Source of the DNA: a virus
Taxonomy: Duplodnaviria; Caudoviricetes
Length of the DNA: 64,000 nucleotides
IMG/VR virus record: IMGVR_UViG_3300014204_000111
Span: 128,001 to 192,000 of that record
Strand: one strand, 5' to 3'
This document shows, piece after piece, positions 15,566 to 39,885 of this stretch (its first letter is position 1; each line of letters begins with the position of its first letter). A program made the position numbers and the translations under genes. The notes under the pieces were generated by a model. The model saw only the letters and a list, made by a program, of their open reading frames with translations, made no database searches and was not told where the DNA came from.

Positions 15566-15571
15566 AGAAAA

Positions 15572-15588
15572 GGGTAAACTATGATATG
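15572..15588 (+). promoter_or_regulatory. leaderless promoter GGG-TAAACT-N5-ATG
   Basis: recurrent motif heading the polyprotein operon. Confidence 0.7.
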
Positions 15589-16776
15589 CCTATCAGACAA
15601 ATTGTATCAGCAGGAACTAGATATAACCCAGGAGATTATTTTTCTCCATCTCTGAACACGCCAGAAGTTATCAATTCTATTCAACAAGTTCATAATAATG
15701 CCTTACAATCTCAAGGTAAAGTAGATTCTATAAGAAATTCTACTTTTACAGTTCCAGAAGAACACTTAAATAGAGTGAGAACTTTAATGTCTCTTCAAAA
15801 TCATTGGAGAGAAGCTGTACAGAGAATTGCTAGAAACTCTAAAAATGGTCAAATAGACCCAAGATATTTACATGCTATAGGCAAAGTATTAAATGGTTCC
15901 TTGGAGCAAAAATTAATGAATCCTGGCGAACAATTAGCTAAAACGCCTGGTTATAATTCTATTTATAATCATATGTTTGGTGTCTTTGCTGGTAAAGGTC
16001 AAATGTTAAGAGACGAGGGACATATGGCGAAAGTTTTAGATGATGAAATTAAGACATACAAACCACAACAAGTAACAGTACAACAAGCTTTTGGTGGACA
16101 ACATCCATTTCCAGAGTTTGCTCATTTAGAATCAACACCCGAAGCTAAAGTTGGTAAAGATTTTTTGAATCTTTTATCTACTCCTGTTTCTCCAGAGGCG
16201 GCAGAACTAATGAATGTAAGACGCTCAGATATGCAATCAATAGGAACTACTAGCAAAACTCTTGCTAATATGGGACTTTCTGCTTTTGGTAATGTTGCTA
16301 AACCAGGCCAATTTGCTAAAAGTGTAAGATTAGTTAGACGTTCACTCTTTACTATTAATGATTTGATGTTATATGACCCAAATAGAGCTATGGTAGAAAT
16401 TAAAAAATTGTGTGATGAAAATATTCCTCAAGAATTACATAGTCAATTTAAATTAAAAGAAATTCGTCAATTAAAAAAGGCTATTCAAGCAATATATGCT
16501 TTTAAAAATAGTACTGTACCAGTTGACCTTTTAAAAGCATGGGTAACAACTCAAACACCTATAGATATTAATGCATTACCTGAAAAAAAATATAATGAAC
16601 TTAATTCTCCTTGGAATGATGACCACGAACATTCTGCTATTAAAACTTATGTAGAAAAATTTCCAGATAGTGCTTTTATTGATGTTCTTTTATTTAGACT
16701 AGCTCTTGATGATTATGTCTCAAATAAAAAACAAGTATCAGAAGCTAATATGGAAGTTGGAGGATTAGATGAATAA
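15586..16776 (+). CDS. hypothetical protein, possibly internal virion protein
   Basis: 396 aa; FAKS, LKKA, LLKA motifs. Confidence 0.65.
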   Translation: MPIRQIVSAGTRYNPGDYFSPSLNTPEVINSIQQVHNNALQSQGKVDSIRNSTFTVPEEHLNRVRTLMSLQNHWREAVQRIARNSKNGQIDPRYLHAIGKVLNGSLEQKLMNPGEQLAKTPGYNSIYNHMFGVFAGKGQMLRDEGHMAKVLDDEIKTYKPQQVTVQQAFGGQHPFPEFAHLESTPEAKVGKDFLNLLSTPVSPEAAELMNVRRSDMQSIGTTSKTLANMGLSAFGNVAKPGQFAKSVRLVRRSLFTINDLMLYDPNRAMVEIKKLCDENIPQELHSQFKLKEIRQLKKAIQAIYAFKNSTVPVDLLKAWVTTQTPIDINALPEKKYNELNSPWNDDHEHSAIKTYVEKFPDSAFIDVLLFRLALDDYVSNKKQVSEANMEVGGLDE

Positions 16777-17170
16777 TCTTATTCTGCTCTATAGGAAACC
16801 ATTTGGTGACGAGTATGTTTCTGCGGATAGTCTTTTTGATGGTAAGTATAATATATATGAATTATTAGATATGTTTCCTGAAGCTTATCTTTTATTGGTT
16901 AATGATACAACAGAATATAACTTAGAACAAGTAATTAATAGAACTCGTTTAAATCAATATTTTAAAGTTGACGATAAAAATGAAATGCCTTGTGTTAATT
17001 GTAAGGCTGGAAATCCTGTAGATAGAGAATATTGCTATAAATGTGGTTATAAAAATAAATATTATAGTGTTACTAAATTTCTTAGTGACTCTTTTAGTAA
17101 AGCAATGTCTACAAAATATTATGTACTTTATGAATTTTGGGAAGACCAAAGACACAGAAGTATAATCTAA
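16769..17170 (+). CDS. zinc-ribbon protein
   Basis: CVNC...CYKCG. Confidence 0.65.
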   Translation: MNNLILLYRKPFGDEYVSADSLFDGKYNIYELLDMFPEAYLLLVNDTTEYNLEQVINRTRLNQYFKVDDKNEMPCVNCKAGNPVDREYCYKCGYKNKYYSVTKFLSDSFSKAMSTKYYVLYEFWEDQRHRSII

Positions 17171-17181
17171 GAGGATTGATA

Positions 17182-20100
17182 ATGACTCCAGAAGAATTAA
17201 TTGCTGCTAGACAATCTGTTCTTGACTCTTTACAAACATTTAGAAAAGAGAATAATCTTAGTCCGGTTTTAGACCCTAGGGGAGAGACTCCAGAAACTAG
17301 AAACACGCATAATATACAAAATATTTACCAACAAACACGTTATGGGCAAGAATATAGACATCCAGATAATCCATTTTTCCCTCCTGCTAATGAAGAAGAT
17401 TTTGGTCATGGAGGATTTGCTCCAGCATTAACACCAGAAGAAGAAGAGAAAATAAATATAAATGATACTTCTGAAACAGATTTACCTAATAATAATAGTA
17501 ATTTTTTATTTCCACAAGAATCTGTCAATCCTGAGATAAATAAAAAATGGAACGAGTACCAAAATAATATAAAAACAAGTAATATAGCTAAAATACATCG
17601 TTTAAACAAAAAACCATATGAACATCCTGATGAAACAATGTATCTAGGTGGAGAAAACTGGTCTCATGGAGGAATAAAAGATTTTATTCAACCATTAGAT
17701 GAAGGTATTTCCTCTTTATTTGATAAAATTACTTTTTCTAGAGATAATATAGAGAGAAACAAAGCAATAACAGAAAAATCTCCTCGATTTAATTCTAAAA
17801 AATTAATGCCAGAAACAGCTAATGCCTGGAGTAATTTTATAACTTCTCTTAAAATTCCTCATGGCGGAGATAATAATATTAATTTAAAAGAATTATTGAA
17901 AGAGACGGGATATGTTCACGGTCAATTAAATCCTGAAACAAAAGAAATATCTTGGAATGCAATACCTGAAAAAAAAGCGTGGACTCATAGTGATTTAACT
18001 AGAGAAATACCAGGAATAGTTTTAGGTGGTATACAAGGTATTGTACATCCTAAAACAAAAAAAGAACATTTAAATATTTCTTGGGTTGGTACTCCAGAAC
18101 ATTTAAGAAATCAAGGATTTGCTACTACATTAGAAACAGAAGCACATAAATTAGCAAAACAATCTGGATATGGAGGGCTATATTCTGATGAACAATTACA
18201 TCCTGAATTTACAAAACCAATTCATCAAAAACTAGGTAAACCATATACTCATTGGGGTAAAGAAGAATATTTCGGACATGGCGGAATGAAAGAAGATTAC
18301 ACTCATGTAGGTAATTATATAGGAGAAGTATTCAAACAACATCCAGATAGGAATATAGCTATTACACGCTTAAAAGATGAAGGTGTTATTAGTGGTAATC
18401 CTTCTTCTGGAAAAGATAAACAAGTATACTCTTTAAATACATTTTTACATCCTGAAACAGGCGATATTCAGCGTTTTAGAGGTGGAGTGCTTAAAGTAGT
18501 TCATCCTAATCAAGGTAGATATGCACAAGATGCTATGTTGGAAGAAGTTACTTCTTCTCAATTATATCCTAATGTAACTGTACCTGTTCATGCATATGAT
18601 AATCATAATTATAATTGGGCAATTGCGGATAAAGTAAAGCCTTTAATTTCTGGGTCAAGAGAGTATATTTTTGGGCAAGACCCAGATATGACAAGTTCAC
18701 AAAAATATGATGCAAATCGAAGAATAGAAGAAGGACAATCAAAATTAGAGGATTATTTAAATCGTTCTAGTCCAGAATTTTTACAAGAAATTTCTAAGAT
18801 AGGTGTTAAACCAGCAGAAACAGAGTGGGCTGCTAATTGGGGTATAACACCTGTTAGAAATGAACAAGGAAATGTTGTTAGAGACCCAAGAACCAAAAGA
18901 ACTCTTAAGAAGTTAGTCTTATTAGATTCTTCAAGAGCTGGACTAAATAAAGCTGTTCCTACTCCAGAAGAGATGATGAACACTATGTATGGACAAACTT
19001 TTGAAAAACTCCAAGAATTACAATTAATTGGTAAAAAACCTCTTGGAGAAGGAATGAGAAGAGTAGTATATCCTACTGCTAATCCAGGTATTGTTGCTAA
19101 AAGAGCAAAAATAAGTCCATCTGGTAAGGCTCATGTAGGAATGAACAATAATGGTGATGAAAGAAATAAATATTTAACTTTAAAAAATCAAGGATTAGAT
19201 AAACATGTAGCCGAAGTTTATGGATTAGTTCCTATTAAAGATAATAACATTCTTTTGCAAGAAAGAGTGCGTCCAATAGATATGGGAATTAAAGATGACG
19301 ATAAAATTTATGAAAAATATAACAAGCTTATTTCACCAGATATGCAAGATTTTTTTACTAATAGATTAGGAATTAATGATATTCATCCAGGAAATATGGG
19401 GATTAAAAAAGATAAAGAGACTGGAGAAAAATATCCTGTAGCTATTGATATTCCTAATAATATGGGTCATGGTGGAGAGAAATATGTTGGTCGAGATTAT
19501 GATAAAGTTTTAGAATGGCTAGAGAATACTCCGCGTGATGAAGTTACGGCACAATTAAAACCATTAGGTAGTGGTAGACATAGAGCAGTATATGCTTTTC
19601 CTAATAAATTTGCTAAAGAGCAATTTGGAGATATTTATCCAGAAATTGTATATAAAGACCCTGTGGCGTATCAAGGAACTCCTGCTAACGAAAGAGAAAT
19701 GAGAAATTGGCAACAATTAAAAGAACAGGGGAAGGCAGAATTAGCCGCTCCTGTTGTTGCACAAGCAAGATTAAAAGGTGGATATAGAGTAGGTATTTTA
19801 CAGAGAAGAATTAATCCTTTTCATGGTGATAAAGCCTTTGGTCAAAATACTCCGTGGGAAAGAGATGAAGAATTCACAAACGCAGGACTTAAAGATAGAG
19901 TTGGTTTTAATTTTGGTTTAACTAGAGTAATGCCAGATGGTTCATTAGGACAAAAAAGAACAGTGCAACATGATATAGCAGGTGCTCTTAACAAGGCAAT
20001 TAATGATTATGATGAAGTTGGAAATTTAATTAGAAATTCTAAACTAGAACAATTCAGTTCAATGCTCAAATTTATGGGACGAGAAGGTAAAGATAGAAGG

Positions 20101-23064
20101 GTTGGAACTTTAGACCATAAAATTGCTCAAAATTTATTAGGCAAAACTTATGCAGATTTTCTTAAAGTTAAACCAATAGTATTTAAAATTCCTATGGCAA
20201 ATAGTTGGGAACCTAACGCGAACAACATGGAGTATGAAAATTTTATGAATAAATATAAGGGACAAGAACTTGTTGTTCCAACTTTAGCTTCTTTTCATAC
20301 AAATGATAATAAGGTTATCAATATTCAACCTAAAGTAAATCCATTTAGGTCAGAAAAACAAATGATGCGGACTTTAACTTCTGATAGAGAGAATGAACTT
20401 TATGGAAAAACTGGATTACATGATTTAGGTTATCATAATTTAGCTAATACTAAAATAACAGATAATGGAGTATTAACCGACCATAATTCTGTAAGACCGT
20501 TTGATTATGTACATGGTGGAGATAAAAAGATTAGTTATGATACCAAGGGGCGTTTTATAAACTCTGGTGTTATGAGAGAAGTTCATCAATCTGCATTAAA
20601 TCCAAATCATGTAGTAAAAATTCCTTATGGAAGAGATGGAGAAGAGAATAATAGGGCAGAACGTGCTAGATATTTGAAATTAAAAAAATTAGGATTAACA
20701 GGAACTGGAGATTTAGAAAAAGATTTGACTATTGATATTCATGGTTTTGACCCTGAATCAGGTAGAAGTGTTGCTGAAAAAGCATATCCTATTCCGGGTT
20801 ATTTAGCAGAGTCAATATCTAGAGATTTAAGAACTGGGGGTAAAGCTGAGAATTTCCCTGAAACACTAAAAGATAGGGTACTACAATTACGGGAAATAAC
20901 GCGCAATCCTATGAATAGAAATATAAGTGATTTACATGGAAGTAATGCAATGTTTAATTCTCCATATAAAGGAGACTTCAATAATGAAGATGAATTTGTT
21001 AATTTTGCATCAAAACATTTAGTAACTGTAGATTTCAATGCAGGACATGATGGAGATAAAAATTCTTTATCTGAATTATTAAAAACTACTAAATATGTAT
21101 ATGGAGAGTTAAATCCTAAAACTAAGGCTATTAATTGGAATTCTATTGACCCAGTTGATGCTCTACCATTTAATCAGTTTACTAAGGAAAGTCCCCGTAT
21201 ATTATTGACCAATAGGTATGGTTATATACATCCTGAAACTAAGCAAGAGCATCTTACTATTTCTTGGGTTGGAGTTCCAGAAAAAATGAGAAAAAAGGGT
21301 TTTGCTACCGCATTAGAAACTGAAGCACATAAGTTAGCCAAACAGTCTGGATATGGAGGATTGTATTCTACACATCAAAATCATCCAGAGGCTACCAATT
21401 CTATTCATCAAAAATTAGGCAAAGTTATACAAGATAAAGAAGGTGCTGAATTTTTCAATAAAAGTAGAGAATATCATTGGCCTCTTGACCCTCTTGACCC
21501 TTCTTTGCCAACTAAACAGCCAATTACGGATATTAGTGCTTTACGTCCAGAATTTGCACAAGCAATTACAGAATTATTTAAACAAGCTAAACAACACGGA
21601 TATGATTTATATATTAGAGAAACATTTAGAACTAGACCTCGCCAAGATGAACTAAATAAGGAATGGCATGCTGGTCAAACTGGTTATGCACCTGATATTT
21701 ATGATGAACGTGGTAATTTAAATATTGATGATGCTAATTTTGCTCATGGACAAGGATTAGCTGCTGACATAGGAATTAAAGGATATGAAGAGAATGAAAC
21801 ACCTATTCACCATCAATTACATAAATTGCTTTTTAATATTAATCCTCAAATTATATCAGATAAGGTAATCCAGGGCGATGAAAATCATTATGAAGCATCA
21901 GACCAATATAGACAAAGTGTTGAAGTAGATTTAACTAAATCTCCATTTTATACTGAATATGTAAAGCGTTATGCTAATCCTACTCCGCAAGAATTGGATA
22001 AACCAGGAACTCAATTGCCAGAACAAAGTATGTTAAAAAGTATATTCGAAGCATTTGGTGTCGTTAAGGCTCTTTATTCTGGCCCAGACGATTCTTATGC
22101 ATATAGAGAAGGAGAAAATCCTCATCTAGATAATTCAAGAGCAACACTAGAAGCTATTAAAAATACTAAACTAGGTAAAAGAAGTAATTTTACAATTAAA
22201 AAACAATCAACATCTCCTCAAGTGTCGTTATCTCAATCTCCAGTTGTAACTCAACCAAGCCCTACTTTGTCTCAAGTAAATTTTACGTCACCTCAGAAAA
22301 TAGCTCCTCAATTATCACCTGATTTAGCTAAAGTTGCCACTGGATATAGTGATATATTAAGTAAATTAAGAGAACAACCAACTAGAAGTATGCCTCGACA
22401 AACAGATACATCAGGTGGATATGAATCTCCTATTCTTCCTAAACCTTCTCAGTTAGGTATGAGTGTACCTATGAGTCAATCTAAATTAAGAGATACTGGT
22501 CAAGGTTATACAGATAAACCTGGGGATAGAAGTCCAATTGTTCATCAATTAGGACAGAATCTTTTTGGAGAGACAGAATCTCAACCTAAAAATCTTAATT
22601 TATTCGGAGAATCATTTCCAGAGATACCTTCAACTCAAGAAACACAACCTAATGTTGGTTCTTTATTTGATGCTTCTTCACCATCTTTATTTGACTCTAA
22701 TACTATTCAAAATATGAGATATGGAGAAGCTGATATTCAATTAAAGAGAGAGAAAGAACAAGAAGCTATAAGACAAGCTCAACTTGAAGAACAAAAACAA
22801 CAAGAACTTCAAAGTAGACAAGCTCAAATACAATCAATTTTTAATAAAAATCCTCGTGATGTTGGAGGATTTGCCTATGATAAACTTAAAGAAGAGAATA
22901 AATTAGGTGGATTTGGAGGTATTTTAGCTCAAATAGCTGATAAAATTATTGGCCCTGCAACAGCTCCTCTTGGTGGCTTCAGCTTCGAAGAACAAAGAGC
23001 TAAAAATATGCTTGCTCAAGAAAAAAGAAATTTAGCAAATGAAATTAAAAAACGTCAAATATAG
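17182..23064 (+). CDS. multi-enzyme polyprotein: GNAT, 5 kinase-fold modules, GNAT, M15 peptidase, low-complexity tail
   Basis: GAGGA RBS before ATG 17182; GNAT motif A (LRNQGFAT, MRKKGFAT); kinase motifs (GEG..VVY, VAK, DIHPGN, ID); M15 motifs (R-R-RQ, HGQGLAAD, DENH). Confidence 0.75.
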   Translation: MTPEELIAARQSVLDSLQTFRKENNLSPVLDPRGETPETRNTHNIQNIYQQTRYGQEYRHPDNPFFPPANEEDFGHGGFAPALTPEEEEKININDTSETDLPNNNSNFLFPQESVNPEINKKWNEYQNNIKTSNIAKIHRLNKKPYEHPDETMYLGGENWSHGGIKDFIQPLDEGISSLFDKITFSRDNIERNKAITEKSPRFNSKKLMPETANAWSNFITSLKIPHGGDNNINLKELLKETGYVHGQLNPETKEISWNAIPEKKAWTHSDLTREIPGIVLGGIQGIVHPKTKKEHLNISWVGTPEHLRNQGFATTLETEAHKLAKQSGYGGLYSDEQLHPEFTKPIHQKLGKPYTHWGKEEYFGHGGMKEDYTHVGNYIGEVFKQHPDRNIAITRLKDEGVISGNPSSGKDKQVYSLNTFLHPETGDIQRFRGGVLKVVHPNQGRYAQDAMLEEVTSSQLYPNVTVPVHAYDNHNYNWAIADKVKPLISGSREYIFGQDPDMTSSQKYDANRRIEEGQSKLEDYLNRSSPEFLQEISKIGVKPAETEWAANWGITPVRNEQGNVVRDPRTKRTLKKLVLLDSSRAGLNKAVPTPEEMMNTMYGQTFEKLQELQLIGKKPLGEGMRRVVYPTANPGIVAKRAKISPSGKAHVGMNNNGDERNKYLTLKNQGLDKHVAEVYGLVPIKDNNILLQERVRPIDMGIKDDDKIYEKYNKLISPDMQDFFTNRLGINDIHPGNMGIKKDKETGEKYPVAIDIPNNMGHGGEKYVGRDYDKVLEWLENTPRDEVTAQLKPLGSGRHRAVYAFPNKFAKEQFGDIYPEIVYKDPVAYQGTPANEREMRNWQQLKEQGKAELAAPVVAQARLKGGYRVGILQRRINPFHGDKAFGQNTPWERDEEFTNAGLKDRVGFNFGLTRVMPDGSLGQKRTVQHDIAGALNKAINDYDEVGNLIRNSKLEQFSSMLKFMGREGKDRRVGTLDHKIAQNLLGKTYADFLKVKPIVFKIPMANSWEPNANNMEYENFMNKYKGQELVVPTLASFHTNDNKVINIQPKVNPFRSEKQMMRTLTSDRENELYGKTGLHDLGYHNLANTKITDNGVLTDHNSVRPFDYVHGGDKKISYDTKGRFINSGVMREVHQSALNPNHVVKIPYGRDGEENNRAERARYLKLKKLGLTGTGDLEKDLTIDIHGFDPESGRSVAEKAYPIPGYLAESISRDLRTGGKAENFPETLKDRVLQLREITRNPMNRNISDLHGSNAMFNSPYKGDFNNEDEFVNFASKHLVTVDFNAGHDGDKNSLSELLKTTKYVYGELNPKTKAINWNSIDPVDALPFNQFTKESPRILLTNRYGYIHPETKQEHLTISWVGVPEKMRKKGFATALETEAHKLAKQSGYGGLYSTHQNHPEATNSIHQKLGKVIQDKEGAEFFNKSREYHWPLDPLDPSLPTKQPITDISALRPEFAQAITELFKQAKQHGYDLYIRETFRTRPRQDELNKEWHAGQTGYAPDIYDERGNLNIDDANFAHGQGLAADIGIKGYEENETPIHHQLHKLLFNINPQIISDKVIQGDENHYEASDQYRQSVEVDLTKSPFYTEYVKRYANPTPQELDKPGTQLPEQSMLKSIFEAFGVVKALYSGPDDSYAYREGENPHLDNSRATLEAIKNTKLGKRSNFTIKKQSTSPQVSLSQSPVVTQPSPTLSQVNFTSPQKIAPQLSPDLAKVATGYSDILSKLREQPTRSMPRQTDTSGGYESPILPKPSQLGMSVPMSQSKLRDTGQGYTDKPGDRSPIVHQLGQNLFGETESQPKNLNLFGESFPEIPSTQETQPNVGSLFDASSPSLFDSNTIQNMRYGEADIQLKREKEQEAIRQAQLEEQKQQELQSRQAQIQSIFNKNPRDVGGFAYDKLKEENKLGGFGGILAQIADKIIGPATAPLGGFSFEEQRAKNMLAQEKRNLANEIKKRQI
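17872..21423 (+). repeat. intragenic duplication of the GNAT module (about 17872-18240 and 21064-21423)
   Basis: shared strings such as LETEAHKLAKQSGYGGLYS, ISWVG-PE and IHQKLGK. Confidence 0.9.
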
Positions 23065-24529
23065 TATCAGAAACATGAAATGTAGATAGACAGAGAGACG
23101 ATACAATATCATCGAATCCTGTTCTTGGCTTATATTTAATATTACCACTATCTGTTGTTTCCGCTCTATAACCCTTGAGTTCTTTTTTTATCTCTGGAAT
23201 ATCCCATAATGCTAAAGCTTCTGAAGCTAATTTGACTCTTAATTTTTCAATCATTTCATTTTTATTTTGATTAGTAAATTTGAGACCTTTAATTACTATT
23301 GATACACCATATTTATCTTTTAATCTTTTAGCTACTTCTCTTGGAACAGATGAACCTTCTCCAGTTGCGTCTATAATTACTTTTAATTTTCTTTTACCAT
23401 TATGTTGTCTAAATATAAAATCAGTAATTCTCTCTATATTCTCATCGTCTCCAACTTGAGTATATCTTTGGAATCCTACCATTTTATAATCCCCAGTTAA
23501 TGCTGTACAAACTGTATAGTCATGTAATCTAGCATAGTCAATACCAATGGTAATTTCTTCGTTCGGAGCTGGGGTATAAAATTGACTTTTTGTTTCTCCG
23601 TATTCTATCCCCTTTTTGAACTCTACAGGAAACCAAATATCCTCATTAAACGAAAATACATCTCCCGCGATAGTATCAAACTTAGCTTCGTACTCTCTTG
23701 CAAAAATAGCTCTCGAATATGGAGTTCCTGTAGATTCGGCCTTTCTTTTCTCTTCATAATACTCAGAGATATCAGCAAAAGGATTCTCTAGAATATGCAT
23801 TCTAAATCCTCTCGCTCTTAATCTTGCTATCTTACTTGCTGCTTGATATGCTGTAATATCTCCAGACTTAAACATCTCTCTAATCTTATGTTCATCTTCT
23901 TCTGCTAATTGAAATCTCTCTGCAAAAAAGTTTATCTCTCTCGGAGAACTAATAGCAAACAATCTTCCCATATTATTTTCACGGGCAAGAGATGGTTTGA
24001 TTAAGTTAAAAGCGTCATCTTTAAGAATTGCAGCTTCGTCTATAACTACTAAATCAGCACTTTTACCAATTAAAGAGTCAGGATTATCTCCAGATAAACA
24101 AGTTAAAGTACTATGTTCAGAACCCATAGATGTACTTAAATGCATATCTTGTCTTGTATTTGAGCCAGAAACTTTGATGCTACGCAAGAAGTCACTTTTA
24201 ACAAAAGCAGTCCAAACTGTATCAAAAACAATTTTGGCTAACTGGTAAAAAGGAGCTACTAAAAATATCTTTCTGTTAGGTAAACAAAGTTCTTCTAATA
24301 CTCTTATAGCAGCAGTTTGAGATTTACCACTTCCACGAGAAGCAGTAATATACATTTCTTTTGCAGGACACATAAGAAGTTTTGTTTGTTTGTCAAATGG
24401 CACGTATTCTTCGCCAAATGACTCCCACAACTTCATCCTGTCCTCTCCTAGCCCTAAAGCTTCATCTCTATCTGTTAGTGGTGTTTTGTTTAAAAGTGCT
24501 CTAGGATTACTCGTCAGTGTGTTCTTCAA
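23045..24529 (-). CDS. terL: terminase large subunit
   Basis: Walker A ASRGSGKS, Walker B VVIDEAA, FAREYEAKF, nuclease IGIDYAR..D, DATGEG, DDIVSS. Confidence 0.93.
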   Translation of the reverse strand: MKNTLTSNPRALLNKTPLTDRDEALGLGEDRMKLWESFGEEYVPFDKQTKLLMCPAKEMYITASRGSGKSQTAAIRVLEELCLPNRKIFLVAPFYQLAKIVFDTVWTAFVKSDFLRSIKVSGSNTRQDMHLSTSMGSEHSTLTCLSGDNPDSLIGKSADLVVIDEAAILKDDAFNLIKPSLARENNMGRLFAISSPREINFFAERFQLAEEDEHKIREMFKSGDITAYQAASKIARLRARGFRMHILENPFADISEYYEEKRKAESTGTPYSRAIFAREYEAKFDTIAGDVFSFNEDIWFPVEFKKGIEYGETKSQFYTPAPNEEITIGIDYARLHDYTVCTALTGDYKMVGFQRYTQVGDDENIERITDFIFRQHNGKRKLKVIIDATGEGSSVPREVAKRLKDKYGVSIVIKGLKFTNQNKNEMIEKLRVKLASEALALWDIPEIKKELKGYRAETTDSGNIKYKPRTGFDDIVSSLCLSTFHVSDTIFDVF

Positions 24530-25344: not shown

Positions 25345-28197
25345 ATGAGAAATTTTAACATCTTAGACATTTTTAAACTAGATTATATATCTGACCGTAA
25401 ATTACGTCAAATGGATAAGGTCATTAGGACTCCCGTTAAAACACGTTCATTAACAACAGAGTTTAGACCTCACGACCGAGACCGTGGGCAGGAAATATCT
25501 GGAGAATATTCATTTCAAATACCTTTTAGACAACAAAAACAGTTATATCAAAGAAATCCGTGGGTTAAGCGTTGTATTGACCATATTTCTTCTGCTGCTG
25601 CTGGATTAAATTGGCATATTATACCAAAAGAAAAATACAGAGAAGAAATGGAAACTGACCAACATATGCAAACAGCTAAGGTATTGGCAGAAGAATTGTT
25701 TAATCGCCCAAATACTTTTAAACAATCATTTAGCGACTTAATTAAAATGATTGTTAGAGATGTTAAAATTATGGATGCTGCTGCGATTGAGAAAGGGAGA
25801 GATTCATTTGGAAGATTAATTACTCTTAAGGTAATTGATGCTTCTACACTTAAAATTGATATTGATGAACGAGGACAAATAATAAAATACGTACAAGAAT
25901 TTAGAGGTAATCAACTTCATGGTATGTATACTATTCCTAATGAACTAGCAAATGCGAGAGACCCACATGGAAGTAGAGGAATTGATTTTGACCCTACTGA
26001 AGTAATATATCTTAGGCTTAATCCTCGCTCAGAAGGGCCATATGGTTCTTCTCCTATAGCATCTTTAGTAGAAGCAATTTATGCTGATTTAGCAACTGAT
26101 ATTAATCTTTATCATTTTCTTAATACTGGTGGTGTTAATACTGGTTATATGAGTGTTGGCCCAAATATTGACAATGACCAAATTGAAAGAATCAAGATTA
26201 AGTTTCGTCGCTCTTTATCTCCTGGTATGAGATATGAATTTCCTATTATATCATCAGAAGATGAAGTTAAATGGGAATCAATGCAAGTTACTAATGTTGA
26301 AGCACAAATGGCTGAATTACAAGGAGAACTAAGAAATAAAATTTTAGCAGTTCTTTCTATTCCACCTAATGAATTAGGTTTATCTGGAAATACTAGAGGT
26401 CAAGTTTATAGTCAGCAAGATGTGTTCTGGGGTAATGCTATTATTCCTATGATGAAATCTATTGCTGAAAAATTTACAAATGAAATTTTAGCGGAATTTG
26501 ACGATAGATTAATGTTTGAATTTTTACCTCCTTCTGAGTATCAATATGAAGCAATTATGGCTAGAATTACAACTCTTGAACAAGAAGGACTAATTGAAGA
26601 TGATTTAAAGTATCAATGGTTAGGCTTAACTCCTCCAAAAGAACCCACTTATGTTCAAAAGAAAAAAGAACTAGAACTTAGAAAATTAGCTGTTGATGTC
26701 TATATGGTAGAAATGCAAGCACTTGCTCAGTATAAGAATAAAAAATACATCTTAGATGAACCTCGTTTGCAATATCAACAATTACAAGCTGAAACTCAGC
26801 AAATGATGGGTGGAGGACAAGCCTCTCAAGGTGAATTAGACATTCAAAATGCTCAAATAGATGTTCAGAAAAAACAAATAGAGCTTGAAAAACTGAGAAT
26901 TATGTCTGACCAGAAGATGTTTCCAGATGAGATGGAACTAAAGAAACTTCAAATTCAAGCACAAATTCTTGAAGCTCAAAGCATGATGGCTCAGAATGGA
27001 AGTAGTTCAAATACTCCTCAAGCTCCATTAACAATGGGCGAAATTGTACATGGTATACAAAGTGGAGAAATAAATACACAAACTCTAGCAGTTATGATTG
27101 AAAAACATTTGGTTGACCCTGAACAGTTAAAACTCATTAATGTTGCAGATAGAACTGTCTCAGGTATAATAAAGGATGCAGAAGAAGTTGCTACTCAAAA
27201 ACAAGCTATTCAATTTAAGAAAGAAAAAATAAATATGGATAGACAAAAAGAGCAAATGAAATATCAGCAAGCTGGCGCTCAACATCAAAACAAAATGGCA
27301 GATGCTCAATTTGACCAACAAAAGATGGGAATTCAAAATCAAGGTGAGTTACAAAATGTTATTGCTCAGCAAGAATTAGCTAGAAATCAGTTAGGTATGA
27401 GACAACAACAAATGGAACAACGTGGACGCTTGCAACAGCAAAATATGCAAGCTCAACAAGCTCTTGGACAACAAAAGACCCAAGTTCAACAACAACAGTT
27501 GTCTCTTCAGCAACAGCAAATGCAACAAATGGCCCAAAATCCTCAAATGGCTCAACAAGGAATGCAACCTCAGCAACAAAATTCTGCTAATTCTCAACAA
27601 CAATTACAGGAATTAAGACAATTAACTATGAATAAATCTATTTCAGATAGATTAAATTTCTTTAAAACCTTACCTAATATTTTAGGAAATGGACAAATTA
27701 CTGATTCTAAAATAAGTGAACCTCATAAATCTAGAATAAGTCCAGATATTACTCATTTTGAGAATGATGTACATGATTTTGATTTAAGTAAACATGTAGA
27801 GAATAAAATAGAATCATTAGAATCTAGAAATCCTGCTGTGTCTATGTCTACTCCTTCTTTAATAAAAAATCAAGCTATGGGTGTTGATGTCAAAGATAAC
27901 AATCCTGTAGATATGGCTATTAAACAAATTTCCGAAGTTGGAGAAATGGATGCTATTCATCCTAATACAGGGATAAAGAGCAATCAGAATGTTTTAGGTC
28001 AACATACAACTGGAGATGGAGCGCATAGTGCAACAACTATTTCTAGTCCATCTCAAGAAGGAATTGCTGCAATTAGACCTCTTAATATAAAGAAGCCTTT
28101 ATCATTCCAAGCAACTGACCCTCAACCAGGACATGCCAAGCTTGATATAGATTCAGCGCAAAAGAAGCATAATACTAAACCAAAAAGTGAAATATAA
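25345..28197 (+). CDS. portal protein (HK97-like) with a long Q-rich C-terminal extension
   Basis: WVKRCIDHIS, LFNRPN, EVIYLR..P...YGSSPI, ILAVLSIPP..LG, AIIPM; position before protease and capsid genes. Confidence 0.88.
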   Translation: MRNFNILDIFKLDYISDRKLRQMDKVIRTPVKTRSLTTEFRPHDRDRGQEISGEYSFQIPFRQQKQLYQRNPWVKRCIDHISSAAAGLNWHIIPKEKYREEMETDQHMQTAKVLAEELFNRPNTFKQSFSDLIKMIVRDVKIMDAAAIEKGRDSFGRLITLKVIDASTLKIDIDERGQIIKYVQEFRGNQLHGMYTIPNELANARDPHGSRGIDFDPTEVIYLRLNPRSEGPYGSSPIASLVEAIYADLATDINLYHFLNTGGVNTGYMSVGPNIDNDQIERIKIKFRRSLSPGMRYEFPIISSEDEVKWESMQVTNVEAQMAELQGELRNKILAVLSIPPNELGLSGNTRGQVYSQQDVFWGNAIIPMMKSIAEKFTNEILAEFDDRLMFEFLPPSEYQYEAIMARITTLEQEGLIEDDLKYQWLGLTPPKEPTYVQKKKELELRKLAVDVYMVEMQALAQYKNKKYILDEPRLQYQQLQAETQQMMGGGQASQGELDIQNAQIDVQKKQIELEKLRIMSDQKMFPDEMELKKLQIQAQILEAQSMMAQNGSSSNTPQAPLTMGEIVHGIQSGEINTQTLAVMIEKHLVDPEQLKLINVADRTVSGIIKDAEEVATQKQAIQFKKEKINMDRQKEQMKYQQAGAQHQNKMADAQFDQQKMGIQNQGELQNVIAQQELARNQLGMRQQQMEQRGRLQQQNMQAQQALGQQKTQVQQQQLSLQQQQMQQMAQNPQMAQQGMQPQQQNSANSQQQLQELRQLTMNKSISDRLNFFKTLPNILGNGQITDSKISEPHKSRISPDITHFENDVHDFDLSKHVENKIESLESRNPAVSMSTPSLIKNQAMGVDVKDNNPVDMAIKQISEVGEMDAIHPNTGIKSNQNVLGQHTTGDGAHSATTISSPSQEGIAAIRPLNIKKPLSFQATDPQPGHAKLDIDSAQKKHNTKPKSEI

Positions 28198-28417: not shown

Positions 28418-28434
28418 GGGTAAAATAGGATATG
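28418..28434 (+). promoter_or_regulatory. leaderless promoter GGG-TAAAAT-N5-ATG
   Basis: recurrent motif. Confidence 0.7.
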
Positions 28435-29040
28435 ACCGAAGTATATAACGAACAAGATTTAGGGCATGGAGATAATTTTTATTGGCCTAAATTACATAGA
28501 TTTTTACATCAAGTTAAATGGTGCAAACAAACACACGGAGAAGATTCGTTTGATTACGAACAACAAATTGTAAAACTTGCACAATTAGTAGCTGCTATGG
28601 GTGATATGAGAGATTTACCTATAGAAGAGTTATATCATTATTTCCACGGTCATCACAAAGCTGATATTAATAATGCTGTTGAACTAATTCAAACTCAAGA
28701 TAAGATGATGTCTCCTAGAGAAGGAAATCTTGAAGAAAGATATAATAATAAATGGGTTGTTAGAGATACAGAGAATTATATGGATGGATTTGGTAGACCT
28801 TGGTTATCTCAAGGATATAACCAATCTACTGATTTAAAAAGAGAACAAGTATTAGATTATAACACCCCTGTAGGTCTTCATAGACCAGATGCAGATACAT
28901 ATATTGAAAGTTATCCCGAACATCCTCATAATGAAAAATGGGAAGAGAAATTAAAGCAGAATAGCTACCTCCGTATGTTGTTCACCAAAGAAGAACGTGC
29001 CGAGGCTAAACGTAATATGGAAAAATACGGAGAACAATAA
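28432..29040 (+). CDS. putative internal head protein
   Basis: between portal and protease; LGHG motif at residues 10-13. Confidence 0.6.
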   Translation: MTEVYNEQDLGHGDNFYWPKLHRFLHQVKWCKQTHGEDSFDYEQQIVKLAQLVAAMGDMRDLPIEELYHYFHGHHKADINNAVELIQTQDKMMSPREGNLEERYNNKWVVRDTENYMDGFGRPWLSQGYNQSTDLKREQVLDYNTPVGLHRPDADTYIESYPEHPHNEKWEEKLKQNSYLRMLFTKEERAEAKRNMEKYGEQ

Positions 29041-29921
29041 TGTCAACAGCAGAGCAAGTGATGCAACAAGCCGAAACCTATAAGTTATTCAAAGGTATTA
29101 TTAATAATTTTGAAGAAGATTTGGTACAACATGGTTATGAGCTTGATGAACAAGATAAAGTAAGAGTAATTAACTTGGTTATTGATACGACCCAGAAGCT
29201 TTTTAAAGGGTCTACAGATGAAGAGTTAATTGATTTTCTTGGTCGTTATGATAGAAATATTAGAGCAACTGCTCTTAATACATTAAATAATGAATATGAA
29301 CAAGAAGCTTTAACTAAATCTATGCAAGAATTGACATATCACCCAGACCATGTTTACGCTCATCAAGTAGAAGAGTCTGGAAAAGATGTTTATCCAGAAA
29401 TGCTTAAGAGCAGATGGAATGAGTTGCCTGACGAACTTAAAAACCATATGGAACAATATCATATGGAAAATAGATTATGGCACACTCATACAGATAATTT
29501 GGCTGACCCATTGATTTTTGGTAAATCAGTTGAAACTAATATGGTTGAACGTAACTATATTCATGAAATCGCTCACCGTCTTGACGAAAAAGCTGTAAGA
29601 GGCGAAGAGGCAGATGATGAAGAGATTTCAGTATATTCTGAGCTTTATAAAGCTGAAATTTATCCTGGTATGGTTGCCAGTGATGGTGTGGTTATTACTC
29701 CTGAGTTAGCTGAACATATGAATGGTATTCACGGCCCAAGATATCAAGCTCATCCTTTAGAACTTCCTATGATTGGCCCTTCTGGTTCATTTGTTGAATT
29801 TGAGCATTTAAAGAAATCAATGCCTGATAGACCTACATCATTTAAAACTGAGAATGAAGTTTCTATTTTGAAGCAAGAACTTTTTAATCTCGGCTACGAG
29901 ACTCAAAAAAAAAATAGCTAA
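29040..29921 (+). CDS. putative internal head/core protein, acidic
   Basis: repeated LFKG, LTKS, MLKS, FGKS, LYKA, LKKS; ends just after an A10 run. Confidence 0.65.
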   Translation: MSTAEQVMQQAETYKLFKGIINNFEEDLVQHGYELDEQDKVRVINLVIDTTQKLFKGSTDEELIDFLGRYDRNIRATALNTLNNEYEQEALTKSMQELTYHPDHVYAHQVEESGKDVYPEMLKSRWNELPDELKNHMEQYHMENRLWHTHTDNLADPLIFGKSVETNMVERNYIHEIAHRLDEKAVRGEEADDEEISVYSELYKAEIYPGMVASDGVVITPELAEHMNGIHGPRYQAHPLELPMIGPSGSFVEFEHLKKSMPDRPTSFKTENEVSILKQELFNLGYETQKKNS

Positions 29922-31050
29922 ATCCAGTCCTAATCCTGGCTGGTCAGATGATACTTACGAAGAAGACGATGATTCTGCACGTCAAGAGGCAGAAGAGTTA
30001 AGTTTAGGTCAAGATACTCCTTCTCAAGCAACTAAAAGATTTCTTCCAGCAGAAGGTCATGCTGATGGACAACATCCATATTTAAGTAACCCAATTCATT
30101 CTTCATTCTCTCATTTACAACAATATCTTCCTGAACTTAATCAGCATTTAAATGCATACTTACAGCAAAATCCTAATTTTGACCCAAAGAATATACTTGC
30201 AGTTAGAGGAGCGGCATTAGAAGCTCTTCATCATCATCATACTCTAAATCACCTAAATCCTACGCCTCCTCCGAATATACCTCAAATAGTTCAACAAGCA
30301 GGAGCGCTTATCCAAGGTCATCTTGATTCAGAAAAGAAAAATGTACAACAATCTTCACAATCTTCATTAAGTAATCAAACTTGGGATAAGAATGATACAA
30401 CAGATATTTTCGGTAAACCTACTTGGTTCCCACAACAAAAAGGTCACGGAGGTATGGGAGAATTTTCTTCAAACTATATAGCTCCTTCAATGAATAAGTC
30501 TCTTAATTCTTTTGTCCAAATATCTATGCTTAAAGGTATGCTAGATAATTTACACACTAAACATAATTACGGACACGGAGGAGAAATAGATGTATTAAGC
30601 GGAAAAACTGTTAATCCAAAAGATTTACCACAACCTGTTCAACCAATGCCATCTTCTCCTATTGCTGTACCTAATGACCCTTGGAAAGAGGATAGGGAAG
30701 CACAAAAGTATGAGAAAAAGACTTTGCCACCTCATTCAGGAGATGGTTGGGGTTTAGCAGATGATATTAGAGGAAATTTAACTGATGAACAAGAGATGGA
30801 TGATGCTAATAATGACCCTAATAATGGACTAGCTCCAGAATTTAGGACAAAAACTGTTCAATCAGACCCTAAGCAATCTCAAAGAATACAATCATTTCCT
30901 GGCAATTTATATCCTAGTAATCCATCTATGGTTCCTTCGACTCCTGCACCACAAGTATATAATCCCAATGTTAAACCAAGTAATGTAGATATACTCCCCG
31001 GATTAAGAGCAATGATAGAAAGTGCTAAAGTAGGACAGGCTGGTAAATAA
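29915..31050 (+). CDS. probable frameshifted extension of 29040-29921 (includes track ORF 30454-31050)
   Basis: +1 frame open from 29872 with no ATG/GTG/TTG before 30454; coding-like sequence with IAKS, KGHG, MNKS, YGHG. Confidence 0.6.
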
Positions 31051-32922: not shown

Positions 32923-32928
32923 AAGTGT

Positions 32929-32945
32929 GGGTAAAATACTGTATG
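32929..32945 (+). promoter_or_regulatory. leaderless promoter GGG-TAAAAT-N5-ATG
   Basis: recurrent motif; moves the protease start to 32943. Confidence 0.7.
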
Positions 32946-34922
32946 GCTAATAAAACCTTTATAACTGGTGAAAATGTTAAAAGTCTTGTAAAGATGGAAT
33001 ATGACGGAGATGTTATCTTTGAAGGTATATTCGCATCTAATGATAGAGATATTCAAGGCGATATTATTGATAAAACAATGCTTAAGCAAATGAATAATAA
33101 TCTTAACACTGGTGCGCCTGTTTTCTTAAATCACTTTTATCATAGACCGGCTGTTGGTAAAGTTTTAAAATCAGAATATATGGAAGACCCAAATACAGGA
33201 AGAGCTTGGATTTGGGGGCGTGGTGTTGTTGATTCTGCTGATGCTGATTTTAAAAGACAAGTAGCAGATGGTAGATATAAATATATCTCGGTTGGTGGAC
33301 ATTTAGATGATTATGAAATGGAAAAGTCTGCCGATGGGAAATCTACTCGTCGTTGTAAAAGTGGAAAAGCTCTTGAGATATCTTTAACCGCAGTTCCTAT
33401 TAATATATCTGCTGGTATGACATTAGCAAAAGGTCAAATTAACGATGAAATTACAGACCAAATTATAGAAAATAATAACTTAATGAAAGCAATCTTCTCA
33501 ATGGACGAGGATGAGCAAGGTAAATTAACTAAACTAAATTATCACGAAGTAGAATTTATCCCCATATCGGAGCAAAGTATGTTGCAAAAAGGTGAAGTTG
33601 GAGAATTCAAGAAGTTAGACGAAAAACCTAGCAAATCAAGTATTGAATTCGGACATGGTACAAAAGTTGGAGAAGAAGACTTAGAAAAGTATTATAATCC
33701 AAAGGTTTCTGGCTTTATAACCAGCAAAGACGTAGACCCTCTTAATGTTTCTGACGAACATTCTCAAGAATTCTTAAGCAAACATAAGACAAGTGTTATT
33801 GAATCAAATGAAAAACATGATGATTTTGGTTTTGTTGATAAAAACAGCGAATCTTTCTTAAATAAAACTTCGATTTCTGACCCCGCTGCTCCTAACAAGT
33901 ATGACCCAGGTAACTCTGTAGATAAAAATTCTAACTCTTGGATTCTTTCTCAGGCTAAAACATTTGTTTCTGGTTTAGATTCTATGCAAAAAGCAGTATT
34001 AGTTGATTTAATTTTCCACGATTTTAATACTGATAAATTATATGCAACATCTGGAGAAAGCCAGCCAAACGTCATTCACCGTTTATTACATCAAAAGAAT
34101 TCTTATGCTAAAGCTGGTGGATTTTCTAATATTATTGGTCAAGAACTTACAGCATTATTAAAGTCTCTTGATTGGCGTAATTCTGATAACAATATGTATG
34201 ATAGATTAGTATTAGACCATATTCTTGGCCCAAATCATATTGAAGAGGTAAAAGATTATTTAACTAAGTCTATGTATGGTTTTGCTGGAGACAAAGACCC
34301 TAATGAACCAGATGGCGATGAAATGGGACAAGACCCTTCAATGGGTGGTTCTCCTATGGGACAAGACCCAAGTATGGGTGGAGCACCTATGGGACAAGAC
34401 CCTTCAATGGGTGGAGCACCTGCAATGCCCGCTCCTGGTGCAGAAGGTACTGACCCAAGTATGGGCGGTGGCGAAGACCCAACAATAGGCGCAGTTTCTC
34501 AAATTGTTGAAAAATATGCTCAGCAAGCAGGAATTGACCCCAATTCTATTCAACAACTATTACAAGGTGGAGATGTAACTGGCGCAGCTAAGGCCGTTAT
34601 TCAAGCATTACAGCAATCTAATCCTGACTTAGCTAATCAAATGTTAGATGAACTAAACCAAACCCTACAGGGTGGTGGTTCTGAACAAGCAACACCTGGA
34701 GGTGGTGAAGCACCTGGCGCAGCTCCCCAATCAATGATGATGGGTAAATCAATTAATCCAGAAGAAGCTGTTGCTGCATATAGAGAAGCGAGAAAAGAAC
34801 AGTTTACAAAGTCAAGAGTTTTCTCTGAACAACCTGCTCAATCTCGATATAATAGTAAACCAGCCAGCGGCGCTGACTTGGCAATGGCCTCTTGGATAGG
34901 TCAGTATAATATCGAAAGATAA
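32943..34922 (+). CDS. HK97-type prohead protease fused to a scaffold-like region
   Basis: FEGIFAS..RDIQGDII, FLNH (His), AVGKV, YISVGG (Ser), LEISLTAVP-N; long acidic low-complexity C-terminal part. Confidence 0.88.
   Translation: MANKTFITGENVKSLVKMEYDGDVIFEGIFASNDRDIQGDIIDKTMLKQMNNNLNTGAPVFLNHFYHRPAVGKVLKSEYMEDPNTGRAWIWGRGVVDSADADFKRQVADGRYKYISVGGHLDDYEMEKSADGKSTRRCKSGKALEISLTAVPINISAGMTLAKGQINDEITDQIIENNNLMKAIFSMDEDEQGKLTKLNYHEVEFIPISEQSMLQKGEVGEFKKLDEKPSKSSIEFGHGTKVGEEDLEKYYNPKVSGFITSKDVDPLNVSDEHSQEFLSKHKTSVIESNEKHDDFGFVDKNSESFLNKTSISDPAAPNKYDPGNSVDKNSNSWILSQAKTFVSGLDSMQKAVLVDLIFHDFNTDKLYATSGESQPNVIHRLLHQKNSYAKAGGFSNIIGQELTALLKSLDWRNSDNNMYDRLVLDHILGPNHIEEVKDYLTKSMYGFAGDKDPNEPDGDEMGQDPSMGGSPMGQDPSMGGAPMGQDPSMGGAPAMPAPGAEGTDPSMGGGEDPTIGAVSQIVEKYAQQAGIDPNSIQQLLQGGDVTGAAKAVIQALQQSNPDLANQMLDELNQTLQGGGSEQATPGGGEAPGAAPQSMMMGKSINPEEAVAAYREARKEQFTKSRVFSEQPAQSRYNSKPASGADLAMASWIGQYNIER
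34323..34421 (+). repeat. three tandem 33-bp repeats encoding MGQDPSMGG(S/A)P
   Basis: units start at 34323, 34356, 34389; looser copies follow. Confidence 0.9.
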
Positions 34923-34933
34923 GGAACTAAATA

Positions 34934-36214
34934 ATGAATCGTAGACAACCATTTGTGAAGAGCAATCAGAATTTCCAAAAAGCAGGAGATTTTCCTACTA
35001 CATGGGGAGATTCAGGGAGTGTTCCCGCTGATTACCAAACAGTGTATAATCCTGGGCAAGGCTTTAACGTCTCTGCTCAAGTAGGAAGTCTTACAGCTCC
35101 TATTATTGGTAGCCCTGGTGTTATCAACTCAATCGGTGGTAGAGACTTCTTATCAATTGATGTAACGCAAGAATATTTGCCTTATATCAACCAAGCGTCT
35201 TATTTGCGTAAGCACCACAGAGTCGTTCCTATGGACGGCCCAAGCAAGTATATTCCTAAGATTGCTGGCCCAGCAAAAGTGTATGCAACTGGTGAAGGTC
35301 AGGTTATGAGTCAAACCGTAATCCCAACCACAACTGTTGCGTTGATTGCAAAAGCAATGGCAGTTTCTTTCGCAATTCCTCGTGAAATCGCGGATGACTC
35401 TATCATCAATTTGCTTCCTGCAATTAGAGAACACTTAGTTGACCGTTTCGTTCTTGCAGAAGAAGAAGCCTTCTTATTAGGTGATGAAAACACTTTCGCT
35501 GGTAGTGGTAGCGTTCGTTCTATGTTTAACGGATTGAGTGTCGGTGGTGAGTATAACTCCCTTGGCTCTTCAGATGTTATGGCAAATAACGGTGCTGAAT
35601 TAATTAACGCCGCTGGAAACCCATTCTCAACTGAGCATGTTAACGAAGCTCTTGAGAAGTTGGACTTGCTAGGACAAAATCCTGACCATATTCTAGGTAT
35701 TATTTCTCGTAAGCATGCAAGAACCCTACGTGGTGACTCTACGCTTTTACGTCAATTAACTAACTTTGGCCCAAGCCCAACCTTTAGAACTGGTCGTATA
35801 GGCCAAATCTTTGGTGTTAACTTGGTTCAAACTAACTTGTTGAATCCTAATGCGATGGTTCCAAGTGATGATGGTCAATGGTGGGGCTTCTTGGGCTTTG
35901 GTTCTGAAACTCCCGTTGAAATGACAACTCCTGGTGGAAATGACCCTGACCTTTTAAGTGATTATGGTACTGGTAACAGAATCTATTCATATTATGGTTC
36001 AGAAGCTCTTGCTAAGGCGCATCAGACAACTCTTACTGAAGCTTTGTTTGTCCATAAGGATAGCGCAGTTATCGGTGATAGACAGAAATTGGAAATCGAA
36101 ATGTCTGCTCACACTCTATTAGCGGCTCGTTCGCTCTTGCTTGTGGCGCATGAGAGAATTGCATTTGCTTTACAATTACGTAGAGGTATTTGCAAGGTCA
36201 TCCAGTTGGGTTGA
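34934..36214 (+). CDS. major capsid protein (HK97 fold)
   Basis: GEG, IPREIADDSII, EEEAFLLGD, FNGL, GQIFGVNLV, ERIAF; follows the protease; terminator downstream. Confidence 0.92.
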   Translation: MNRRQPFVKSNQNFQKAGDFPTTWGDSGSVPADYQTVYNPGQGFNVSAQVGSLTAPIIGSPGVINSIGGRDFLSIDVTQEYLPYINQASYLRKHHRVVPMDGPSKYIPKIAGPAKVYATGEGQVMSQTVIPTTTVALIAKAMAVSFAIPREIADDSIINLLPAIREHLVDRFVLAEEEAFLLGDENTFAGSGSVRSMFNGLSVGGEYNSLGSSDVMANNGAELINAAGNPFSTEHVNEALEKLDLLGQNPDHILGIISRKHARTLRGDSTLLRQLTNFGPSPTFRTGRIGQIFGVNLVQTNLLNPNAMVPSDDGQWWGFLGFGSETPVEMTTPGGNDPDLLSDYGTGNRIYSYYGSEALAKAHQTTLTEALFVHKDSAVIGDRQKLEIEMSAHTLLAARSLLLVAHERIAFALQLRRGICKVIQLG

Positions 36215-36216
36215 TG

Positions 36217-36233
36217 CATGTATCATCTTACCC
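36217..36233 (-). promoter_or_regulatory. antisense-oriented GGG-TAAGAT-N5-ATG motif pointing into the capsid gene
   Basis: reverse complement of CATGTATCATCTTACCC. Confidence 0.4.
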
Positions 36234-36250
36234 ATTCCATCAGATTATTC

Positions 36251-36278
36251 AAGAGGCTGTTAAAAGCCTCTTTTTTTT
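36251..36278 (+). terminator. intrinsic terminator after the capsid gene
   Basis: AAGAGGCT-GTTAAA-AGCCTCTT followed by T run. Confidence 0.88.
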
Positions 36279-36319
36279 GGGTATATAGAGTATACGAAAA
36301 ATTATACAGGAGTATAACG

Positions 36320-39868: not shown

Positions 39869-39885
39869 GGGTAATATAGATTATG
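39869..39885 (+). promoter_or_regulatory. leaderless promoter GGG-TAATAT-N5-ATG
   Basis: recurrent motif. Confidence 0.7.

Follow-up and report, generated by a model that had tools for sequence, protein, structure and literature searches.

The question raised by this locus is why a phage would carry, directly beside its large terminase gene (terL), a single open reading frame (ORF) that strings together kinases, acetyltransferases and a cell-wall peptidase, and whether such a chain would work whole or in pieces. The locus lies in a 64,000-nucleotide (nt) window, the whole stretch of DNA analyzed here, which corresponds to bases 128,001-192,000 of a 220,861-bp contig of an uncultivated phage (IMG/VR record IMGVR_UViG_3300014204_000111) recovered from a landfill metagenome and bounded by direct terminal repeats. 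The gene in question, P0001, is translated without a stop into 1960 amino acids (aa; 222 kDa), and a Shine-Dalgarno-like AGAGGA stands 8 nt before its ATG. We found that P0001 has a motif-delimited architecture that is real and statistically secure. We consider the balance to lie slightly in favor of its being a head-packaged "polyvalent protein" that the prohead protease would cut into effectors, which would then leave the capsid to act on targets in the host.

An earlier note on this DNA had proposed that the chain is divided at ten boundary motifs, and the coordinates that it gave for all ten were exact (Table 1). The tripeptide HGG occurs six times in P0001, against approximately 0.35 expected from composition, and a seventh site reads HDG. 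A count over every stop-to-stop frame of 100 aa or more in the genome of 220,861 bp (66,312 residues) gave 15 HGG, 13 of which fell within three loci: six in P0001, two in an open frame at 29872-31050, and five in a gene pair near 216-218 kb of the genome, with the other two elsewhere. The second form of the motif, NK[AS], was present four times where approximately two would be expected, which by count is not significant; the support for it is one of position, because it replaces HGG at the ends of homologous modules. In the alignment of the two GNAT acetyltransferase modules, YFGHG pairs with FFNKS, placing H opposite K, and the kinase-like modules end in either x-G-H-G-G or x-L-N-K-A, the two being interchangeable at homologous positions. 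Sequence similarity among the paralogs begins and breaks off at these motifs, so that each repeat extends from one motif to the next. The placement of the motifs at domain edges, also claimed in that note, was upheld with a qualification: they stand where the duplicated units end, outside the confidently folded cores, the qualification applying to the C-terminal parts of the models, where confidence is low. In the models of the kinase-like module K2 and of GNAT, the motifs lie in segments with a predicted local distance difference test (pLDDT) score below 50 that flank the folded cores.

Table 1. Features of P0001 and of the head genes around it (positions count from the first base of the window).
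Feature	Position	Strand	Remarks
P0001, polyvalent-protein/polyprotein candidate	17182..23064	+	1960 aa, stop-free translation
Three short N-terminal segments (aa 1-77, 78-163, 164-228)	17182..17865	+	end FGHGG, WSHGG, IPHGG (FGHG at 17401, WSHG at 17659, IPHG at 17854)
GNAT module 1 (aa 229-367)	17866..18282	+	R-x-x-G-x-A acetyl-CoA loop LRNQGFAT; ends YFGHGG (FGHG at 18271)
K1 (aa 368-591)	18283..18954	+	N-lobe homologous to other K modules; lacks catalytic-loop Asp; ends GLNKA (LNKA at 18943)
K2 (aa 592-764)	18955..19473	+	GEGMRRVVY, VAK, DIHPGN, AID; ends MGHGG (MGHG at 19462)
K3 (aa 765-939)	19474..19998	+	GSGRHRAVY, VYK, DRVGFN, HDI; ends ALNKA (LNKA at 19987)
K4 (aa 940-1112)	19999..20517	+	VFK, DLGYHN, TDH; ends YVHGG (YVHG at 20506)
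K5 (aa 1113-1290)	20518..21051	+	VVK, DLHGSN, VDF; ends AGHDG (at 21040)
GNAT module 2 (aa 1291-1428)	21052..21465	+	ends FFNKS (FNKS at 21454)
M15/VanY-type (LAS) metallopeptidase (aa 1429-1619)	21466..22038	+	MLKS, VVKA after its end
C-terminal tail (aa 1620-1960, ~340 aa)	22039..23064	+	no family match
Large terminase (terL)	23045..24529	-	convergent; overlaps P0001 end
Portal protein	25345..28197	+	
Head-module ORF	28432..29040	+	begins MTEVYNEQDLGHGD; QDLGHGD at aa 8-14
ORF 29040-29921 and overlapping open frame 29872-31050	29040..31050	+	frame with KGHGG, SMNKS, YGHGG
Prohead protease S78 fused to scaffold-like part	32925..34922	+	
Major capsid protein, HK97 fold family	34934..36214	+	N-terminus with FVKS, FQKA

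The modules between the motifs were correctly listed in the earlier note as five kinase-like domains, two GNATs and an M15 peptidase, the first kinase-like module (K1) being without its catalytic Asp. The kinase-like modules are related to one another in self-comparison (E-values of 5e-14 for K3/K4, 1e-4 for K2/K3, 4e-3 for K2/K5 and 6e-3 for K1/K5). In an alignment of K2-K5 with the kinase module of P0002, the homologous protein of a related phage described below, the G-loop (GxGxxRxVY), the beta3 Lys, the D-x4-N motif and the late DFG-type metal-binding Asp are all present. By sequence, then, four of the five kinases (K2-K5) keep their catalytic residues and are predicted to be competent. 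K1 fits the family profile over the N-lobe only (hhalign, 84% probability) and is probably an inactive pseudokinase, since its catalytic Asp is missing. Modules K2-K5 are 173-178 aa long and end approximately 10 residues past the DFG-type Asp. Family databases recognize them poorly: K2 matches phrog_4301, and Pfam yielded only a 16-bit match to YrbL-PhoP_reg. In language-model features, K2 lies near viral "protein kinase" and T7-kinase clusters.

Structural models were in line with these assignments over part of their length. An AlphaFold2 model of K2, built from seven sequences, has an N-lobe with pLDDT of 76-97 and a C-lobe below 50. The closest Foldseek matches to this model were IRAK4 and OspG (E-values of 6e-4 to 8e-4), with JAK JH2 domains also found at up to 1e-3; exhaustive structural alignment returned RIP1 (Z 8.5), HopBF1 (Z 8.3) and OspG (Z 7.9), and the ESM Atlas returned APH, YrbL and Pkinase clusters at a template modeling score of about 0.5. 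All the best matches of the K2 model were thus protein-kinase-like. The GNAT model has a core with pLDDT of 66-85 and a C-terminal third of low confidence, and almost all of its fold matches are GNATs, at modest scores (Foldseek E-value of 1e-3; Z of 5-6.7). The expectation that the separate segments would model as kinase and GNAT folds was borne out for the K2 N-lobe and the GNAT core, the parts modeled with better confidence.

The two GNAT modules are 59% identical to each other (E-value of 2e-52 in self-comparison) and carry acetyl-CoA loops that read RNQGFAT and RKKGFAT. In Pfam, P0001 as a whole scored 26.6 bits against the GNAT family (PF00583), above the gathering cut-off of 20.7, whereas the single copies, at 17.8 and 19.0 bits, fell under it. 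The M15 domain passes the Pfam threshold for VanY (25.7 and 25.4 bits; cut-off 25), and a search of PDB with an M15 profile returned weak VanY-type matches only (E-values of 0.09-0.7). The motifs R-x-R-x-R-Q, H-x3-G-x-A-x-D and D-x-N-H are invariant in the three M15 homologues P0001, P0002 and P0010. Zinc in LAS metallopeptidases is bound by H-x6-D and by a C-terminal His that follows an acidic residue, and we take the H, D and D-x-N-H residues to be these ligands from what is known of VanX and the T5 endolysin. Judged by these residues, the M15/VanY peptidase of P0001 is intact.

At the two ends of the chain there is less to recognize. The first 228 residues had no family match, but the first two of the three segments into which they divide both end in Y-x-HPD...HGG, and we regard these segments as a candidate multi-cut propeptide or targeting region. 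The tail that follows the M15 domain appears by eye to be P/Q/S-rich, then charged, then Gly-rich and hydrophobic, and a comparison of the tails of P0001, P0002, P0009 and P0011 gave no significant similarity.

We asked what comparison with other genomes adds, and found P0001 to be nearly an orphan. Scans of IMG/VR with P0001, terL and an M15 alignment, and of metagenomes with the last of these, yielded no relatives. An exhaustive phmmer search with aa 229-1428 against 1.84 billion representatives returned only the query itself and one GNAT-like protein; a word-indexed search with the whole of P0001 returned only P0002; a profile search with the kinase alignment gave no match; and PDB sequence searches with P0001, the kinase profile and the protease domain gave no meaningful match. 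Homologues of terL led to four short contigs of related phages. In one of them (L002), whose terL is 48% identical, P0002 (1121 aa) sits between upstream genes that correspond in position and size and a convergent terL. P0002 consists of a DUF5661 domain, one kinase module, M15 and a long tail; its kinase is flanked on both sides by the motif (DYNKA/LP and DYNKA/VP), and its alignments to P0001 start exactly at NKA. In L005 (L005:2150-4977 for the two genes), a kinase and an M15 domain are joined via FEKA...FVKA/TPDPL; the gene stops directly behind M15, and a second gene of 555 aa encodes the tail. In L008, a solo GNAT homologue (P0003, L008:1857-2489) adjoins a head-tail adaptor gene that is 56% identical to its counterpart here. 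The earlier note had asked for gain or loss of modules at the motif among homologues, and the single YNKA-flanked kinase and M15 of P0002, together with the split after M15 in L005, are instances of it. Across these relatives, the protein has thus gained, lost or split off modules at the motif.

The same motif links P0001 to head maturation. The gene was said to lie beside terL within the head-packaging cluster, and this is so: it converges on terL, its 3' end reaching 20 nt into the terminase gene, and L002 and L005 show the corresponding gene order. Residues 1-242 of ORF 32925 form an S78 (HK97-type) prohead protease, an assignment on which Atlas features (0.96; S78 for 92 of 100 neighbors) and PHROG agreed. 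Directly after this domain stands EFGHGT (residues 241-246; nt 33651-33662), with FLNKT further along the same protease-scaffold chain. The motif near the start of the head-module ORF at 28432 is conserved in L003 and L004 as QELGHGM and EELDHGE (N-terminal L-G/D-H-G). In HK97, whose system is of the S78 type, the capsid protein is cut at K103/S104 (PMC10275583). Taken together, the sites would fit a cut between hydrophobic-x-[His/Lys] and a small residue, although the register may instead be HG/G. The earlier note had cited T4 gp21 and phiKZ gp175 as precedent; the protease here is of a different type, HK97-type S78, and we rejected a T4/phiKZ-type protease logic on these grounds.

Outside P0001, HGG is concentrated in two loci. 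One comprises the ORF at 29040-29921 and the overlapping open frame at 29872-31050, which has no start codon before 30454; by sequence, the region 29040-31050 may encode, joined by a frameshift, a second candidate for a substrate of the protease or for cargo. At the other, genome positions 216001-217883 (L007:6001-7883), adjacent ORFs of 452 and 149 aa and the surrounding frames hold five HGG and one GHDGDK, the latter within a heptapeptide context that P0001 also has. No PHROG match was found for the HGG-rich ORFs near 216-218 kb or for their neighbors. The HGG-rich proteins that begin at 17182 and 29040 of the window and at 216001 of the genome start with MTPEELI, MSTAEQV and MNKYITAEELL. 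A pattern of [ST]-[AP]-E-[EQ]-hydrophobic within the first 15 residues is found in 3 of 348 ORFs, exactly these three proteins, but it was defined post hoc and the count is no test. Sharing a T-[AP]-E-[EQ]-hydrophobic start, the three proteins may carry in it a signal that targets them to the capsid.

These observations suggest the following course of events. P0001 would be expressed together with the head genes and taken up by the prohead, where the S78 protease would cut it at exposed linkers of the hydrophobic-x-[His/Lys]-small type (F-G-H-G-G, L-N-K-A and similar). The pieces freed would be three short N-terminal peptides, two GNATs, five minimal kinases (four of them predicted to be competent), the M15 peptidase and the 340-aa tail. 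At infection they would exit the capsid along with the DNA; the M15 peptidase would open the cell wall locally, and the kinases and acetyltransferases would modify host or defense proteins before any phage gene is expressed. In its fullest form this would be a true polyprotein strategy, in which a precursor of 222 kDa reaches the prohead, perhaps by means of the N-terminal T-[AP]-E-[EQ]-hydrophobic signal, and is dissected by S78 at the hydrophobic-x-[His/Lys]-small code into about a dozen pieces, so that the capsid delivers four or five free kinases, two GNATs and a wall peptidase, with modules being added, lost or split at the code. We hold this stronger version more tentatively, at a little short of an even chance.

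A number of points weigh against processing by the prohead protease. The candidate cleavage is predicted from sequence, and conservation is seen in three partial relatives. Because the kinase C-lobe and the C-terminal third of GNAT are modeled with low confidence, the placement of the motifs beyond the folded part is tentative there. The unified motif, hydrophobic-x-[HK]-small, is degenerate: approximately 12 matches would be expected by chance in 1960 aa, and within it only the HGG subclass is statistically secure. H-G dipeptides also occur inside domains, for example in DLHGS (the K5 catalytic loop) and FAHGQ (an M15 metal ligand), so accessibility would have to decide which of them are cut. 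Finally, the cuts documented for prohead proteases of jumbo phages remove N-terminal propeptides and do not separate enzymes (PMC10052503).

That last point also serves the principal alternative, in which P0001 is packaged but stays uncut and the conserved motifs are flexible linkers, or else docking sites used when the protein enters the capsid or is ejected from it. Delivery without processing is known for the N4 virion RNA polymerase (vRNAP) and for several plasmid polyvalent proteins (PMC5512222), and, as the motif clusters in three proteins that share the T-[AP]-E-[EQ]-hydrophobic start, a targeting code fits equally well. Against it, the motif is found at places where maturation cuts typically occur, the Lys variant of the motif matches the HK97 K/S site, and the split of the L005 gene just after M15 indicates that the pieces can work apart. 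We consider an uncut protein unlikely, though it is the rival that we take most seriously.

Cleavage by prohead protease also has to be set against processing of P0001 by other means, namely a host protease acting after ejection, another phage protease, or self-cleavage. Release of domains after injection has been proposed by Iyer et al. for some polyvalent proteins. P0001 itself, however, has no HExxH and no recognizable peptidase beyond the peptidoglycan-type M15; autoprocessing by an internal zincin was rejected for want of that HExxH. That the motif occurs within the protease chain itself and in head proteins points instead to the maturation protease, and we regard these other routes as very improbable.

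A third possibility is that P0001 never enters the virion and is an intracellular enzyme array, late or early, that remodels host proteins as T7 gp0.7 does, with M15 serving lysis and the adjacency to terL being incidental. T7-kinase-like clusters are among the nearest language-model neighbors of K2. Because no other lysin gene was detected when the genome was searched for the common endolysin families Phage_lysozyme, Amidase_2 and SLT, the M15 domain could indeed serve lysis, which would count against a role at entry; other lysin families lay outside that search, so nothing follows from the negative result itself. An endolysin within a 222-kDa protein would be unusual, however, and the gene keeps its place between terL and the corresponding upstream genes in a relative, L002, whose terL is only 48% identical. 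The motif is common to head proteins and the protease, and the solo GNAT homologue lies inside a head-tail connector cluster. With this evidence, we judge an intracellular array to be improbable, and we favor the packaged and processed form of P0001.

One argument for coordinate expression with the head genes was not supported. P0001 had been thought to share its promoter motif with the head genes, but the recurrent element GGGTAAAATA, which is found before several head genes, is absent before P0001. A sigma-70-like pair is present at 17137-17166; we give it no weight because such matches occur at chance level (88 found in the promoter scan, against 95.7 expected). With at most one mismatch, GGGTAAAATA occurs 19 times against 8.7 expected, including at window positions 1374, 4672, 9668, 11724, 15572, 28418, 32929, 39254 and 39869, and a start codon follows 4-5 nt after its end at six or more of these (11738, 15586, 28432, 32943, 39269 and 39883). 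Two roles would fit such an element: that of a promoter for near-leaderless mRNAs, or one like that of a ribosome-binding site. This spacing places the start of the protease gene at 32943 rather than 32925.

The remaining features of the genome concern its setting. The phage DNA has a G+C content of approximately 31%, rising to 0.42 over the capsid gene region (34001-36000) from approximately 0.31 elsewhere. Short contigs identical to the phage were also present in a groundwater run, with no informative variant among them, and protein and DNA searches of deposited phage genomes in INPHARED matched no relative. Upstream of P0001, at 13949-17170, are three genes of 538, 396 and 133 aa, the last with a zinc-ribbon-like hit; none has a PHROG function. 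Their counterparts in L002 (484, 351 and 122 aa) are matched by position and similar size only. These three genes may belong to the same module as P0001. An HNH endonuclease gene (36218-37324) directly follows the capsid gene, and a second is found at 39883-40458. Downstream of the head-tail adaptor are two giant ORFs, at 42353-56005 (4550 aa) and 55992-62684 (2230 aa). HGG is absent from both, the larger having a single HDG close to its N-terminus, and the smaller had no match in a PHROG search.

Polyvalent proteins are widely predicted, yet their packaging and activation are barely understood. Here one genome shows the candidate protease, its putative substrates and an unusually explicit junction code, and the proposal can be tested with synthetic genes. 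If it is true, prohead proteases would be polyprotein processors for injected effectors, S78 cleavage specificity could be used to predict cargo, and the minimal kinases and acetyltransferases would likely be aimed at host or defense proteins in the first seconds of infection.

Among known systems, the polyvalent proteins are the closest in kind. These carry C-terminally truncated kinases, GNATs and DD-peptidases, and the prediction is that they enter the virion and are injected (Iyer, Burroughs, Anand, de Souza and Aravind 2017, PMC5512222); the statement in the earlier note that such proteins carry GNAT and kinase domains agrees with that work. They are recognized by at least two disparate catalytic domains in one chain, here kinase-like, GNAT and M15, and by a portal-terminase context in phages, here a convergent terL, a portal gene 2 kb away and synteny in L002 and L005. 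P0001 resembles them in its many disparate enzyme domains, its virion gene context, its apparently truncated kinases, its GNATs, and its peptidoglycan peptidase. Multiple copies of a domain are also known among them, as in one protein with 12 ART copies (PMC5512222). The kinase clade described there has lost the C-terminal subdomain while keeping its active-site residues, and has a Gln in the last N-lobe strand and a Glu near the G-loop (PMC5512222). In our modules the Gln is present in K2-K4 (LLQERV, ILQRRI, NIQPKV) and not in K5 or P0002, and a GEG near the G-loop is found in K2 and P0002 only. P0001 differs from polyvalent proteins in having no MuF, MPTase/zincin, ART or DarB-type domain, in its five tandem kinases, and in the motif at every junction. 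Autoproteolysis has been proposed for their processing (PMC5512222); since every junction motif of P0001 is common to head proteins and the S78 protease, processing by the prohead protease is indicated instead.

The small kinases of approximately 170-200 aa with a reduced C-lobe, OspG, NleH, HopBF1 and T7 gp0.7, are similar in size, and probably in build, to those of P0001, and OspG and HopBF1 are among the best structural matches. The P0001 kinases differ from all four, which are single proteins, in being modules of a putative polyprotein, and we found no sequence-level membership in their families. P1 DarB offers a parallel for the gene: it is a 251-kDa protein, packaged via an N-terminal signal, encoded beside the portal and protease genes and delivered with the DNA (PMC9024508). 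Like it, P0001 is a very large enzyme gene beside head genes, its own packaging being a prediction; DarB, however, is a methyltransferase-helicase that acts on DNA and not a motif-delimited chain of many enzymes.

For processing, the nearest parallels are the jumbo phages and HK97. In SPN3US, the prohead protease is documented to process proteins of the head and ejection proteins at several motif copies (PMC10052503). P0001 shares with SPN3US gp53 and gp54 and with the phiKZ inner-body proteins the presence of several copies per protein of a protease motif, putative in P0001; there they are cut during maturation, while for P0001 the cuts are predicted from the gene. The protease of phiKZ-like phages is moreover T4 gp21-like and cuts after Glu (A-x-E) to remove N-terminal propeptides, whereas here an S78 enzyme would cut at hydrophobic-x-[H/K]-small and whole enzymes would separate. 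HK97 gp4 belongs to the same protease family, S78, and the K103/S104 cut in HK97 matches the N-K-A/N-K-S variant. It is known to cut the capsid protein and itself; we know of no case in which it cuts cargo polyproteins, and we found no description in the literature of a His-Gly cleavage site for it. What sets P0001 apart, as read from its sequence, is that whole enzymes are separated by a regular code at their junctions, which an HK97-type protease would use and which is shared with the protease chain and with other candidate cargo.

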